A stretch of 64,000 nucleotides of DNA from Acidimicrobiales bacterium (GCA_050012675.1 JBEKGS010000001.1:733-64732), one strand, 5' to 3'. Positions 43,133 through 48,556 are shown, counted from the first letter of the stretch. A program made the numbers and translations. The notes: generated by a model from the letters alone, not told the origin.

Positions 43133-43397
43133 GCCTTCGAGGACGCCCTAGCGCCTCGGCTGCGCCAGTGCAGCCGCCGACTGATTCGTCCCTGGGAATC
43201 GCGCTCTTGATGCGGGTAGGCTCGTGGCACGTCGTTACATCCGCAGTGCCCCCTTCGTCGAGTCGTGGATCTGCCTTCTTTCGGACCGGGTGAGCAGGTG
43301 GCCGGTGCGGCCACCGTCGCAGCGCAGAGGGCAAGGCTCTGCGAGCCGTCCCGCTATCGGCCCGGTGCCGGACGGGCGGCTTCGGGGGCGTAGAGCG

Positions 43398-44957
43398 ATG
43401 GGGCTTCGGATCCGCCTCGTCGAGCCTCGTCCGGCCGGACACAACGTCTACGACCGCCTGTTGTTGCCTCGTCTCGGTCTCCCGCTCATGGGCAAGATGC
43501 TCACCGACGCGGGCCATTTCGTTCGCGCCTACTGCGAGACGCTCGGACCGATCGACTTGGATGATCTCCTTGCTGCCGACCTTGTCGGGATTTCCTCGAC
43601 GACAGCCACGGCGCCCGCCGCCTACCGCCTCGCCGACCTCCTCGCTTCGGGTGGGGTACAGGTCGTTCTCGGTGGACCGCACGTGAGCTTTCGTGCCGAG
43701 GAGGCACTCGGGCACGCCCGCTATGTCGTGCGAGGTGAGGGCCAGCAGACGATCTGTGAGCTCGTCACCTGTATCGAGGAGGGACGACCGCTCGAACAGG
43801 TGCGGGGGCTCTCATTCCGCAGCGACGCCGGCGAGCTCCACCACAACCCGGCCCGGCCACGTTGCACCCAGGAGGAGTTCGAAGGGCTGCCCATCCCCGA
43901 TCTGAACCTCATAGAGGGCAGTCGCCGGATGAAATTGAAGCCGCTCATGACCCAGTGGGGTTGCCCATTCGACTGCGAGTTCTGCTCGGTCGTGGCGATG
44001 TTCTCCCGCGCCGTGCGTCACCGGCGCACCGACCAGGTTCTCGCCGAGCTCGAGGGCCTTTGCGCCGAAAGGGTCTTCTTCTACGACGACAACTTCGTCG
44101 TCAACAAGGCGCGCACTGCAGAGCTTCTTCGTTCCATGACTGCCTCGGGCCTCACGCCTGTCTGGTCAGCTCAGGTCCGCGCCGATGCCGCAAGATGCTC
44201 GTTGTCGCGCCCGGACGTCGACCACGAGTTCCTCACCCTCATGCGCCAGGCCGGCTGCCAGATGGTGATGATCGGCATCGAGGCGATCACCGACGAGGGC
44301 CTCGCGCAGATCGGAAAGCACCAGAGCGTCAAGGTCGTCGAGCAGGCTGTCGGCGCCTTCCACGAACACGGCATAGCGGTTCACGGAATGTTCGTGGCCG
44401 GGCTCGACACCGATACGGCATCCAGTGCGCCGGCGACAGCCGATTTCGCCAGGCGACTCGACATCGACACCTTCCAGCTGATGGTCGAGACCCCGTCCCC
44501 AGGCACGAAGCTGTGGGACCGGATCACTTCCGAGGGCCGTCTGCTGAGTGACGACTGGTCCTTGTTCGACGGGCACCACGTCGTCACCGCCCCGGCGCAG
44601 ATGACCGCCCTCGAGCTCCAACTCGGCGTCCTCGAGGCCATGCGCCGCTTCTACTCCTGGCCGACCATCCTCGCCTCGGGGGTGGCGAGAGTCGTCAGTC
44701 ACCTTCCCGACCTCACCTCGGCGGCACGTCCGGCCTTTCTCCGCCGGCTCCCGACACTCGCGCGCTTGGCTTGGGCACGGCGCTGGGAGGACATCGCCCC
44801 GCTGCTCGAAGCCGGTCTGCCATCTCAGGTCCGGGCACGTGTCGGCTCGGCACTCTGGCTGCCGGCCGTCCGCTTCTACGCCCGCCGCCAGCTAACCGCC
44901 TGGGCGGAGCAGGACGCCTCACGCGCGCACCTCGCTTTCCTCGCCTCGCTTGCTTGA
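43398..44957 (+). CDS. B12-binding domain radical SAM protein with C-terminal DUF4070-like extension
   Basis: The ATG at 43398 gives the N-terminus MGLRIRLVEP. The product has a B12-binding-like N-domain, the CxxxCxxC motif GCPFDCEFC (43962-43985) and a helical tail of about 130 aa. Confidence 0.85.
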   Translation: MGLRIRLVEPRPAGHNVYDRLLLPRLGLPLMGKMLTDAGHFVRAYCETLGPIDLDDLLAADLVGISSTTATAPAAYRLADLLASGGVQVVLGGPHVSFRAEEALGHARYVVRGEGQQTICELVTCIEEGRPLEQVRGLSFRSDAGELHHNPARPRCTQEEFEGLPIPDLNLIEGSRRMKLKPLMTQWGCPFDCEFCSVVAMFSRAVRHRRTDQVLAELEGLCAERVFFYDDNFVVNKARTAELLRSMTASGLTPVWSAQVRADAARCSLSRPDVDHEFLTLMRQAGCQMVMIGIEAITDEGLAQIGKHQSVKVVEQAVGAFHEHGIAVHGMFVAGLDTDTASSAPATADFARRLDIDTFQLMVETPSPGTKLWDRITSEGRLLSDDWSLFDGHHVVTAPAQMTALELQLGVLEAMRRFYSWPTILASGVARVVSHLPDLTSAARPAFLRRLPTLARLAWARRWEDIAPLLEAGLPSQVRARVGSALWLPAVRFYARRQLTAWAEQDASRAHLAFLASLA

Positions 44958-45021: not shown

Positions 45022-45516
45022 TCAATCGCCAAGCGCGGCTTGGTAGCTCCGCAATACCTCGAGGTCAATGGCCACGAGCAGTATCTGTTGCACCGTGGTC
45101 TCGAGGGAACGCAGCGTATCCACGGCTATCCGGGCGGCTTTTTCCACCGGGAAGCCGAACGCTCCGGTGGAGATGGCCGGGAACGCGATCGAGGTGATTC
45201 CCAGTTGCTCTCCAACCTCGATTGCCCGCCTATAGCAGGACGCCAGCACAGCGGCCTCCCCGTGCCCGCCTCCCTGCCAGACCGGCCCGACAGTGTGAAT
45301 GATGAAGCTGGCAGGAAGGTGGAACCCCAGCGTTGCCTTGGCGTCGCCCGGGTCGCAACCGCCGAGTACCGCACAGGCCGCGGAGAGCACGGCCGCCCCT
45401 GCGGCGCGATGGATGGCGCCGTCGACGCCTCCGCCGGCCACGAGCGCGCGGTTCGCGGCGTTGACGACTGCGTCGACCTGGAGGGTGGTGATGTCAGCCT
45501 GCACCGCTCGGATCAT
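45022..45516 (-). CDS. macro domain protein (O-acetyl-ADP-ribose deacetylase / ADP-ribose hydrolase type)
   Basis: The ATG is at 45516. Motifs include DITTLQVDAVVNAAN, GGGVDGAIHRAAG and IAFPAISTGAFGFP. Confidence 0.85.
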   Translation of the reverse strand: MIRAVQADITTLQVDAVVNAANRALVAGGGVDGAIHRAAGAAVLSAACAVLGGCDPGDAKATLGFHLPASFIIHTVGPVWQGGGHGEAAVLASCYRRAIEVGEQLGITSIAFPAISTGAFGFPVEKAARIAVDTLRSLETTVQQILLVAIDLEVLRSYQAALGD

Positions 45517-45803
45517 CGGTGGTGTCACGGCTCCCCCCAAAGCTTTGACCCCGACATCTGAAGGACACACGATGTCGGAGTGTTCTTGTCGACTGTGGAC
45601 GATAGTTCACATCGAGGGCGAGATACACCCTTCTCTCGAGCGATCGGCGATCGGGACCCGGGCGATCCGTTCGGACCGACGACCGCCAGAGGCCATCTCG
45701 GGACAAGGCGCCGATTTGCCTTGTCGAAAGCGGGACTTCGACTCCCTATCCTAAGGGGGCAGCCTCACGGCGGGCTCGACAGATGTGACCTTGAGGAGGG
45801 TCC

Positions 45804-47243
45804 ATGACCATCGACAGTCACGTGACCCATCTGCAGCTGGACCGGGCTGCCGGCGTTCTGCTGGGCTCCGCGGCCGGGGACGCTCTCGGAGCAGGATACG
45901 AATTCATTTCGGTCGGCCCGGCCGACCCCGCCATGGTCGGCGGCGGCTATCTGGACTGGGAGCCTGGCGAGTGGACCGACGACACCCAGATGGCCATCTG
46001 CATCGCCGAAGAGGCTGCCACGGGATTCCTTGACGCCTCGGCCGTCGCCTGCCGTTTCCTGGACTGGTTCAACCACGGGCCCCGTGACGTAGGCAACCAG
46101 ACCGCGGCGGTGCTGTCGGCGAGCCCTTCGCCCGGGGATCTGCCTGCGCGGGCAGCCGAGTACCTCTCGTCTCATCCGGACAAGGCCGCGGGCAACGGCA
46201 GCCTCATGCGCACCGGGCCGGTCGCACTCGCGGCGATCGGAGACGATGTGAAGCTCGCAAGACTCGCCAGGAGCGTGTCCGAGCTCACCCACGCCGATCC
46301 TTTGACCGGCGACGCCTGCGTCCTTTGGTGCGTGGGCATCGACCGGGCGGTCCGTCAAGGTCGCCTGGACGGAGTGCGGGACGGCCTGGCCCTACTGCCC
46401 GAGGTCAGGCGACAATTCTGGGCCGACACGATCGAGGAGGCGACCGAGAAGCGGCCCTCGTCGTTCAATCCCAACGGCTATGTCGTCAGCGCGTTCCAAG
46501 CGGCATTGGCGTCGGTCCTGCAGACTCCGGTCCCGGCCACCCAACCATGCCGGCACCTCCAAGAGGCCCTGAGGACCGCGGTCGGTGTCGGGTACGACAC
46601 CGACACCGTCGCCGCCATCGCCGGCTCGCTGCTCGGTGCGCGTTGGGGCGCGACCGCCGTCCCGGCGCGCTGGCAGGCCGTGCTGCACGGTTGGCCTTCC
46701 TACCGGTCTGGGGATCTCGTGAGGCTTGCAGTCCTCGCCGTGTCCGAAGGAAGGGACAATCCGACCACGCGGTGGCCGTCGGCGGACGACCTCAGCGGCT
46801 ATTACGACGCCAGGTTCCCCGCCGAGGCGATCCACGAGACGCTGGAAGACGACGACGGCGTCATCGTCGCGAACTGGAGCGGCGCCGCCGAGGTCGAAGC
46901 GGATGTCGCCGTGTCGCTCTGCCGCGTCGGCCGGGGACAGATCCACGCGCCCGAGAGCGTCGAGGTCCGCCTTCTGGACGAGGATGCGCCTGAGGCCAAT
47001 CCGAACCTCGAGTTCCTGTTCACGGACCTCGTGGAAGCGATCACTGCCTGGAGGGACGAGGGCAAGAAGGTTCTCGTCCACTGCGTGCAGGCCGAGCGGC
47101 GCACACCGGCGGTTGCCGCCGCCTACCTGGCGAACCGTCTCGGTATCCCGGGCGAAGAGGCCTTTGAGCGCGTCCGCAAGGTCCTGCTCGGCGCCCGCGT
47201 GAACCCGGCGTTCCGTTCGGCCCTGGAGCGGCTCTGGCCGTAG
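45804..47243 (+). CDS. ADP-ribosylglycohydrolase fused to a C-terminal HCX5R (dual-specificity/tyrosine phosphatase-like) domain
   Basis: The ARH blocks are GSAAGDALGAGYEF, WTDDTQM and GYDTDTVAAIAGSLLGA. The C-terminal roughly 150 aa carry VLVHCVQAERRT (47079-47102). Confidence 0.85.
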   Translation: MTIDSHVTHLQLDRAAGVLLGSAAGDALGAGYEFISVGPADPAMVGGGYLDWEPGEWTDDTQMAICIAEEAATGFLDASAVACRFLDWFNHGPRDVGNQTAAVLSASPSPGDLPARAAEYLSSHPDKAAGNGSLMRTGPVALAAIGDDVKLARLARSVSELTHADPLTGDACVLWCVGIDRAVRQGRLDGVRDGLALLPEVRRQFWADTIEEATEKRPSSFNPNGYVVSAFQAALASVLQTPVPATQPCRHLQEALRTAVGVGYDTDTVAAIAGSLLGARWGATAVPARWQAVLHGWPSYRSGDLVRLAVLAVSEGRDNPTTRWPSADDLSGYYDARFPAEAIHETLEDDDGVIVANWSGAAEVEADVAVSLCRVGRGQIHAPESVEVRLLDEDAPEANPNLEFLFTDLVEAITAWRDEGKKVLVHCVQAERRTPAVAAAYLANRLGIPGEEAFERVRKVLLGARVNPAFRSALERLWP

Positions 47244-48090: not shown

Positions 48091-48556
48091 GCTCGCTGGC
48101 TGGGGCGGAGTCCGTCCGTCCTTCCGGCCCCCTGGGCTTGGGTGCTGTCTTCTTCGGGGCGGACAAGTCGGTGCCGGCGGCCGCCGGCGACGTCCATCTT
48201 CTGTCCGCGCGACGTCGTACTCGAAGGCGTCGAGGAGTTGGAACAGCTCGTCGTTGTCCGCTCACGGCCCCGCTGGCGGCCTACGCGGGCAGCGACCAGT
48301 ACGCCATGGACCCGCGACCGTTGAGCGCGGCGCGAGCCGCCGTGGGCGTGACGCGGTAGTGGTCAGCGGCGGTCACGGTGCTCACGACCGGCGGGGCCGG
48401 TAGCCCTGCCATGATCCTGCGGGCGACACAGTCGGCGCGGGGATTGCCTGCCGGCTGGATCAGCTCAGCGAGCATGGCTTTGTCTCGAAACCGAAGCCGC
48501 GACGCTTAAGACTCACTCCCGTTTTCTTCTGGTGGCACGCTCTCGTTTCACCGTTG

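Follow-up and report, generated by a model that had tools for sequence, protein, structure and literature searches.

A minimal ARG-centric locus in an Acidimicrobiales genome: an ADP-ribosylglycohydrolase-phosphatase fusion beside a MacroD-type gene

The closest described relatives of the locus reported here are the 'ARG-centric systems', which were described computationally by Iyer, Burroughs, Anantharaman & Aravind (2022, Viruses 14:1977; PMC9503650, section 3.8). These systems are widespread in actinobacteria, planctomycetes and proteobacteria, and they are built on an ADP-ribosylglycohydrolase (ARG; ARH below) that is not coupled to an ADP-ribosyltransferase (ART) or a sirtuin. In approximately 55% of the systems the hydrolase is coupled, within the same polypeptide or through an adjacent gene, to a phosphatase, most often one of the rhodanese-phosphatase superfamily. 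Nudix-HTH or WYL-HTH repressors accompany approximately 42% of the systems and are not obligatory, while the chaperones TY-Chap1-3, vWA and SseB, REase-fold domains (with a family named ARPP) and, as a recurrent partner, Macro domains are optional. The role proposed for the systems, itself a prediction, is to undo ADP-ribosylation by viral ARTs. Here we analyse two divergent genes within a 64,000-nucleotide stretch of DNA from Acidimicrobiales bacterium (GCA_050012675.1 JBEKGS010000001.1:733-64732; the whole stretch is called the window). One gene encodes a macro-domain protein and the other a 479-amino-acid (aa) fusion of an ARH domain with a Cys-phosphatase domain; the source is a metagenome-assembled genome (MAG) of 3.76 Mb that is 94% complete.

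On its domain composition, the fusion corresponds to the ARG plus rhodanese-phosphatase core of the published systems, and together with the neighbouring Macro gene it makes up a minimal, stripped-down version of an ARG-centric locus. The architecture is not new: an earlier note on this DNA, made from the sequence alone, had taken the combination of an ARH domain with an HCX5R phosphatase for an undescribed one, and this was wrong. The same note had placed both genes and all three of their domains correctly, including the P-loop residues HCVQAERR at 47079-47102, and had given 288 bp for the space between the genes, which measures 287 bp. We read the fusion as an orphan eraser, that is, a stand-alone ARG-centric member without a cognate writer that would act against ADP-ribosylation by foreign transferases, and we regard the case for and against this reading as evenly balanced. 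The features of the locus are as follows.

45022-45516, minus strand: macro-domain gene of MacroD/YmdB type, 164 aa from the ATG at 45516 (Pfam Macro, NF001664 and PDB matches)
45517-45803: divergent intergenic region, 287 bp (alignment of genomes G000, G007 and G006)
45804-47243, plus strand: fusion gene, 479 aa, encoding an ARH (ARG) domain, a conserved linker and a Cys-phosphatase domain
45852-46670, plus strand: ADP-ribosylglycohydrolase domain, DraG/Tri1-like, aa 17-289 (PF03747, ADP_ribosyl_GH, 195 bits)
46821-47240, plus strand: dual-specificity-phosphatase-fold domain (rhodanese-phosphatase superfamily), approximately aa 340-479 (DSPc, PDB profile and AF2)
46914-46925, plus strand: SLCR motif, S371-L-C373-R374 (alignment columns)
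46977-46979, plus strand: Asp392, an invariant column, presumed general acid by analogy with the dual-specificity phosphatase (DSP) family
46998-47009, plus strand: NPNL motif, N399-P-N-L402 (alignment columns)
47079-47105, plus strand: P-loop H426-C427-V-Q-A-E-R-R433-T434, HCX5R-T (alignment columns)

The ARH domain of the fusion is the only one in the genome. In an alignment of 32 full-length sequences (A1), in which the homologues share 53-83% identity, the dinuclear-metal and catalytic residues E33, T58, D59, D60, D95, D265, D267 and T268 were all invariant, and a residue-by-residue alignment to DraG (2WOC) identified D95 as the equivalent of DraG D97. Searched by sequence against the PDB, the domain was closest to Tri1 (6DRE; 3.2e-24, 26% identity) and DraG (2WOC; 5.8e-24), with DraG 3G9D also matched. 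A Foldseek search with the AF2 model of the whole protein was led by DraG 3O5T and Tri1 6DRE, and all 50 of the matches listed were ARH structures. The equivalog models gave 112.5 bits against a cut-off of 490 for Tri1 (NF041672) and 124.9 bits against a cut-off of 337 for DraG (TIGR02662); because both scores are far below the cut-offs, the domain is a relative, and not an orthologue, of these two proteins. Homologues consisting of the ARH domain alone are encoded by Streptomyces phage Bogota (gp77, annotated 'hydrolase'; L119:3007-3975) and by 10 related Streptomyces phages. They are 44-46% identical to the window domain, about as close to it as the chromosomal Streptomyces fusions are, and the phosphatase half was absent from every phage record with an ARH homologue. 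Thus, this clade of ARH domains moves between hosts and phages.

The fold of the C-terminal domain was supported by three lines of evidence, namely a Pfam hidden Markov model, a profile search of the PDB and the topology of the AF2 model. PF00782 (DSPc) scored 32.8 bits in the whole 479-aa protein, just below its cut-off of 33.5, and 35.7 bits, above the cut-off, on the C-terminal 162 aa alone; DSPc was also matched by all 27 of the 27 homologous C-terminal domains that were scanned. A profile built from an alignment of the domain (A2) matched DUSP28 (5.6e-10), VHR/DUSP3 (5e-9), DUSP10/22 and archaeal protein tyrosine phosphatases (PTPs) across the P-loop, while the assignment of the domain to a clade rests on its Pfam matches, i.e. 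DSPc and, more weakly, Tc-R-P, PTP-SAK and PTP-NADK. The full-length AF2 model, computed with the 32-sequence alignment, had a mean predicted local distance difference test score (pLDDT) of 94.0 and a predicted template modelling score (pTM) of 0.94. Within aa 340-479 pLDDT was 86-98, the order of strands and helices was that of a DSP and a strand ran directly into the P-loop. A model of the C-terminal 165 aa computed without an alignment was poor (pLDDT 49) and was not used, and no DSP structure appeared among the 50 Foldseek matches listed for the full model.

C427, R433, T434 and D392 were invariant among the aligned homologues, and Asp392 lies 35 residues N-terminal to the catalytic Cys427, the position expected of the general-acid Asp of a DSP. 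The window P-loop, C-V-Q-A-E-R-R, carries Ala and Glu at sites that are usually Gly in DSPs; most members from Acidimicrobiia read HCV(Q/R)AE(R/S)RTP, and some relatives have the canonical HCxGGxSRT. Two further motifs, SLCR (371-374) and NPNL (399-402), are specific to the family, lie outside the canonical DSP signature and are invariant, with L372 and P400 nearly so. SLCR sits at the end of a strand and supplies a second conserved cysteine, C373, which could speculatively form a back-door redox pair with C427 or else contribute to substrate recognition. Between the two domains the linker residues W297, P298, D304, L305, L308, W324, P325 and Y334 are conserved in A1. Because these residues are conserved and the pTM is 0.94, the model indicates one rigid two-domain enzyme whose halves would act as a single unit. 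Judged by their residues, all three domains of the locus (ARH, Cys-phosphatase and MacroD) look intact at their active sites, and the corresponding activities are predicted.

Chance and an assembly chimera were both rejected as explanations of the fusion, the same architecture being present in more than 100 full-length homologues, in complete genomes and on plasmids. Both Pfam domains were found in 108 of the best 120 homologues listed (53-83% identity; a minority were partial or carried extra domains) and in 29 of the 31 homologues aligned in A1. Among GTDB species genomes, a relative is encoded in no fewer than 598 stretches. Such relatives occur in the complete chromosomes of Micromonospora sp. 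CA-244673 and Peterkaempfera, in genomes of Streptomyces, Mycolicibacterium, Nocardioides, Rhodococcus, Actinoplanes and Janibacter, and 29 plasmid records, Streptomyces plasmids included, have a copy with at least 80% of the query covered. The lineage of the window itself comprises Acidimicrobiales MAGs recovered from soil and peat. Some variants carry an HD_4 or HD domain inserted between ARH and DSPc. On plasmid pA-N39 of Pimelobacter simplex (L118:7530-9182), a gene annotated as 'TM0106 family RecB-like putative nuclease' begins at most 27 bp after the fusion gene and a GIY-YIG nuclease gene lies 3.7 kb downstream; the remaining neighbours are mostly hypothetical proteins.

Membership of the ARG-centric systems was recognised from the surroundings of the homologues, because the neighbours of two of them belong to the Pfam families named in PMC9503650. 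A gene for TY-Chap3/TY-Chap1 precedes the fusion homologue P0067 (58% identity) with a 4-nt overlap, an HD_4 gene and helicases being close by, and downstream of P0104 (56% identity) lie a PDDEXK_13/REase-ARP nuclease gene and two WYL-WCX regulators. The neighbours were then counted across 80 species-level GTDB loci. Because the gene caller had missed genes, such as the macro gene of L030, the counts were redone with tblastn and are lower bounds. Not counting Macro, an accessory lies within 5 kb of the fusion in at least 23 of the 80 loci, and the individual partners are distributed as follows.

NrtR-like Nudix-winged helix-turn-helix gene: 17 of 80 loci, 15 of them within 3 kb
SIR2_2: 6 of 80 loci
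TY-Chap3/1: 5 of 80 loci
Calcineurin-like phosphatase: 4 of 80 loci
Macro: 4 of 80 loci, within 10 kb
REase-ARP: 3 of 80 loci
WYL: 3 of 80 loci
HNH: 3 of 80 loci

The SIR2_2 protein (PF13289, 84 bits) is approximately 526 aa long and is encoded at most 1.6 kb from the fusion in three named Mycolicibacterium and three Actinomycetota MAGs (L095:7563-9143, L062, L092, L096, L104 and L108). A macro-like PLIGTGQAG motif occurs within its N-terminal 200 aa, which are unannotated, and the protein may serve the ARH-phosphatase system as an effector or as a partner that consumes NAD. In the window genome, neither NrtR-like, TY-Chap, REase-ARP nor SIR2_2 had a homologue (tblastn with an NrtR-like representative returned a weak Nudix match on another contig). 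The genome has one WYL homologue, on contig C33, and neither a Nudix nor a WYL repressor lies beside the fusion.

As the earlier note had said, no transferase is in sight: neither an ART nor a sirtuin was found within approximately 10 kb on either side of the pair. The search for writers was extended to the whole MAG, where no SIR2, Arr, Tpt1/KptA or ADPrib_exo_Tox was detected. Genome-wide searches for DarT, for DRAT (the family of DraT, the partner of DraG) and for PARP also gave no match, but here the control genomes were equally silent.

The second gene of the pair can be read as an open reading frame at 45022-45570 on the minus strand, giving 182 aa from a GTG at 45570, or from the ATG at 45516, giving 164 aa with the N-terminus MIRAVQADITT; the shorter form is preferred because the conserved domain and the homologues begin there. 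The protein matched Pfam Macro at 134.5 bits and the O-acetyl-ADP-ribose deacetylase equivalog NF001664 at 204.1 bits against a cut-off of 200. Its closest solved structures were MacroD2 (2.5e-40), E. coli YmdB (6e-38) and MacroD1, and it contains the MacroD/YmdB catalytic motifs NAAN, GGGVD and G-x-F/Y-G (NAAN...GGGVDGAIH and ISTGAFG). By these sequence criteria it is a MacroD/YmdB-type protein, and it is the sole Macro match in the genome. Because no sirtuin was found, its nominal substrate, O-acetyl-ADP-ribose, is without a known source there. A reading of this gene as a DarG-like antitoxin was rejected, since the PADLOC DarG model gave only 13.6 bits (E 0.009) and both the NF001664 and the PDB matches are of MacroD type.

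How tightly the macro gene and the fusion belong together was assessed from their distribution. Within the genus (21 genomes) the fusion occurs in seven genomes and the macro gene in ten, of which four carry both; six have the macro gene only and three the fusion only. In a wider set of 61 related genomes, 31 have a macro orthologue, with identity falling smoothly from 83% to approximately 55%, and 10 have a full-length fusion. The block DegV-rSAM-macro(-)|fusion(+)-MBL-OsmC(-)-DUF480(-), where rSAM denotes the B12-binding radical SAM gene, seems to be ancestral for the genus and is intact in G000, G006 and G007. An insertion of approximately 14 kb separates the pair in G018, where an enolase-family gene and an ABC-transporter operon adjoin the fusion; in G009 and G005 the fusion lies in unrelated contexts, and G019, G004 and G020 show no trace of it. 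The fusion has also been lost from G003 (L025:4657-4770) and G011 (L110:6938-7048) by internal deletions with different borders; in both genomes the macro gene is intact, and the last 37-38 fusion codons survive between it and the MBL gene. With its patchy distribution, its three contexts within the genus, its repeated deletion and its presence on plasmids, the fusion behaves as a mobile accessory gene.

An alignment of the intergenic region of G000, G007 and G006 showed conservation of the fusion-proximal part only, so that of the control region that the earlier note had supposed the two genes to share, the portion next to the fusion is conserved and the portion next to the macro gene is not. 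The conserved part contains the block CCTATCCT (45745-45752), which includes a TANNNT-type -10-like element, TATCCT, and which, from its sequence, we take to be a putative promoter of the fusion gene; G011 retains this block upstream of its fusion remnant. A Shine-Dalgarno sequence, GAGGAGG (45793-45799), is conserved in the same three genomes. A scan of the spacer for sigma-70 consensus elements and terminators found nothing, and no conserved palindrome or operator was seen in the three-genome alignment.

Covalent fusions provide a connection of a different kind. In Rhodococcus (L064, L058), ARH, DSPc and Macro are joined in one 647-aa protein whose Macro domain is 43-44% identical to the window macro protein, and a search seeded on this domain recovered dozens of proteins with PF03747 and PF01661, three of which are annotated with all three domains. 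In other Rhodococcus proteins, of approximately 446-462 aa (P0132, P0137-P0139), rhodanese domains (PF00581) are combined with a macro domain of MacroD type that shares 70-73% identity with its counterpart in the triple fusion, and these proteins constitute a second tie between macro domains and the rhodanese-phosphatase superfamily. In Nocardioides sp. Root682, a macro gene lies five genes away from an operon of NrtR-like, TY-Chap and fusion genes.

These observations bear on the alternative that there is no joint module, i.e. that the macro gene is a MacroD/YmdB housekeeping gene inherited vertically and independently of the fusion, that the fusion simply arrived or persisted beside it and that their adjacency is without functional meaning. 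The greater spread of the macro gene among the relatives and the many genomes with only one of the two genes would fit this alternative, as would the persistence of the macro gene in G003 and G011 despite deletion of the fusion, the distance of approximately 14 kb in G018, the unconserved macro-proximal spacer and the finding of a macro gene within 10 kb in only four of the 80 wider loci. However, two of those four loci are the covalent ARH-DSPc-Macro fusions, ARH-Macro fusions number in the dozens, Macro is listed as a recurrent optional partner in PMC9503650, the adjacency appears ancestral for the genus, and the pair brings the sole ARH and the sole Macro of the genome side by side. We consider it unlikely that the adjacency is meaningless. 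The link between the two genes is real but loose: they are linked or fused in other genomes, and the linkage is weak, such that the 'compact unit' first proposed is looser than that term suggests. Because macro gene and fusion have been gained, lost and separated independently within the genus, the macro protein is best seen as an optional, separable helper and not as an obligate subunit.

For the fusion as an orphan eraser, we infer the following substrates, sequence of reactions and protective function. The DraG/Tri1-like ARH domain would cleave ADP-ribose from host macromolecules, most likely from arginine-linked protein marks that a foreign transferase, either a phage enzyme or the toxin of a competitor, had installed. 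The rigidly attached Cys-phosphatase would then dephosphorylate, at its terminus, the ADP-ribose-derived product, whether this has been released or is left behind. The MacroD-type protein, as an optional helper, would broaden the range of linkages cleared to esters of acidic residues and to phosphate-linked ADP-ribose on nucleic-acid ends, and would also cover O-acyl-ADP-ribose and ADP-ribose-1''-phosphate. Protection against an incoming ADP-ribosylating enzyme, which the earlier note had put forward, matches the published prediction for the family (PMC9503650), which is itself computational; the stepwise removal of a phospho- or ADP-ribosyl modification, also suggested in the note, stays conjectural. 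In favour of the orphan eraser count the intact catalytic residues of all three domains, the modelled unity of the fusion, the lack of the writers searched for, the side-by-side position of the sole ARH and sole Macro of the genome, the neighbourhoods of the homologues, the covalent fusions with Macro, the mobile-accessory behaviour of the gene and the ARH homologues in phages. Tri1, an ARH immunity enzyme, is one precedent. Others are described in PMC11833690, where orphan bacterial poly(ADP-ribose) glycohydrolases (PARGs) protect against the RNA-targeting ART toxin RhsP2, and where ADP-ribose attached through phosphate is taken off the ends of RNA and DNA by enzymes of the MacroD and ARH types.

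Several observations weigh against this reading of the fusion as an orphan eraser of foreign marks. Its main weakness concerns the phosphatase: because ADP-ribose has no phosphomonoester, this domain requires some other substrate, and the model names none. A nucleotide or a sugar-phosphate is favoured over a phosphoprotein because the Cys-phosphatase is interchangeable with HD, calcineurin-like and HAD phosphatases within the family. The hallmark accessories of ARG-centric systems (regulator, chaperone and nuclease) are absent from the window locus, the macro gene and the fusion are phyletically independent within the genus, and an endogenous writer may exist, the ART superfamily being very diverse and the MAG 94% complete. 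PADLOC has no model for the fusion, and a literature search found no experimental work on any member of the family. Lastly, the locus is surrounded by ordinary metabolic genes and does not lie in a defence island.

The last point was established from 19 genes between 35 and 53 kb, among which there was no transferase, mobile-element gene or defence gene. The set includes genes for pirin, EamA, DUF1275, an aldo-keto reductase, hemerythrin, DUF6328, an SDR protein, DegV, a B12-radical SAM protein, an MBL-fold hydrolase, OsmC, DUF480, a GFO/IDH/MocA enzyme and a 2-hydroxyacid dehydrogenase. The radical SAM gene (43224-44957), which lies between DegV and the macro gene, varies in its presence across the genus: it was found in G000, G006, G007 and G018, and in G011 DegV directly adjoins the macro gene. 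The gap between the MBL and OsmC genes (48091-48556) measures 466 bp in the window, against approximately 76-100 bp in G007, G008 and G006; the additional stretch occurs once in the genome, and the loci of the relatives contain nothing that corresponds to it.

Such a setting would be compatible with a housekeeping function in which no foreign enzyme is involved, and in which the locus clears free metabolites such as ADP-ribose-1''-phosphate, 2'-phospho-ADP-ribose or O-acyl-ADP-ribose, or repairs spontaneous or endogenous ADP-ribosylation under stress. MacroD/YmdB and ARH3-type enzymes handle NAD-derived metabolites of this sort, a phosphatase is better matched to a small sugar bearing a phosphate than to a mark on a protein, no defence island is present and the neighbours include the stress and redox genes OsmC, hemerythrin, pirin and the MBL-fold hydrolase. 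However, a gene as patchy and as easily deleted as the fusion (7 of 21 genomes in the genus; 10 full-length copies among 61 relatives) is atypical of housekeeping genes, and the genome lacks sirtuins and Tpt1, from which such metabolites are known to arise. In other genomes the family keeps company with nucleases, chaperones and ligand-sensing repressors and is carried on plasmids, and the ARH domain is of the DraG/Tri1-like, protein-arginine type and not ARH3-like. On balance, a housekeeping role appears doubtful.

It is also conceivable, if quite improbable in our estimation, that the phosphatase works on the modified macromolecule itself, in which case ARH, Cys-phosphatase and MacroD would together form a stand-alone repair kit providing constitutive, regulator-less immunity. 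Its targets may be phosphate-linked or phosphoribosyl remnants, such as ADP-ribosylated 5'- or 3'-phosphate ends of RNA or DNA and phosphoribosyl-protein stubs; alternatively, such a kit may remove phosphorylation as well as ADP-ribosylation that an invader has introduced. The narrower proposal that the domain is a genuine protein phosphatase, with the fusion removing invader-written phosphorylation and ADP-ribosylation from one and the same host target, can draw on the protein-directed atypical DSPs and archaeal PTPs among the best matches (DUSP28, VHR, DUSP22 and Tk-PTP), on the canonical HCX5R-T loop with its Asp and on a modelled rigid coupling to ARH that would suit a single macromolecular substrate, but it is very unlikely given that HD (alarmone-type), calcineurin-like and HAD nucleotidase domains replace or supplement the Cys-phosphatase in the family and that Ala and Glu occupy the usually Gly-rich stretch of the P-loop.

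Bacterial defence against imposed ADP-ribosylation, whether by phage enzymes of the Alt/Mod type or by contact-dependent ART toxins, has barely been studied. The present locus is among the simplest natural versions of an ARG-centric system, comprising one fusion gene with a promoter-like block and a ribosome-binding site and one macro gene, and this simplicity makes it, together with the cultured relatives in Rhodococcus, Nocardioides, Mycolicibacterium and Streptomyces, well suited to a first biochemical test. Two questions follow directly, namely what the Cys-phosphatase acts upon and whether an orphan eraser alone can protect a cell.

Comparison with characterised proteins places each domain beside well-known enzymes. 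The window macro protein resembles the MacroD/YmdB deacetylases (E. coli YmdB, PDB 5CB3; human MacroD1 and MacroD2) in passing the NF001664 cut-off and in aligning with MacroD2 and YmdB over the entire catalytic core. It differs in that the genome has no detected sirtuin, such that the name-giving substrate may be absent, and in that the gene adjoins an ARH-phosphatase gene, to which it is fused in other taxa. DarTG is similar insofar as DarG is likewise a macro-domain hydrolase that reverses ADP-ribosylation; however, the window macro protein is of MacroD type, no DarT was found (with the silent controls noted above) and the two genes are not a toxin-antitoxin pair.

Among ARH proteins, Tri1, the immunity protein of the Tre1 toxin of Serratia proteamaculans (PDB 6DRE/6DRH), shares with the fusion its conserved metal and catalytic residues. 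Ting and co-workers are said to have found, in 2018, that Tri1 is an ARH hydrolase that protects by reversing arginine ADP-ribosylation. Tri1 lacks a phosphatase domain, however, and the window fusion lacks an adjacent toxin or ART gene. DraG, the dinitrogenase reductase-activating glycohydrolase (2WOC, 3O5T), has the identical fold and dinuclear-metal residues, whereas the fusion lies outside a nitrogen-fixation context and bears the extra phosphatase domain. That domain shares the DSP fold, the HCX5R(T) P-loop and the Asp at -35 with the atypical DSPs and archaeal PTPs (DUSP28, VHR/DUSP3, DUSP22, Tk-PTP and SsoPTP), and it is set apart from them by the Ala-Glu P-loop, the extra SLCR and NPNL motifs and its constant attachment to ARH.

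The ARG-centric systems provide the most complete match. The window locus departs from them in having no regulator, chaperone or nuclease and in lying outside a defence island or mobile element. It agrees with them in an ARH domain uncoupled from ART or sirtuin, a fused Cys-phosphatase, an actinobacterial distribution, Macro as an occasional partner and gain and loss among close relatives, and its homologues at 46-58% identity adjoin Nudix or WYL regulators, TY-Chap1/3, REase-ARP and calcineurin-like or HD phosphatases.

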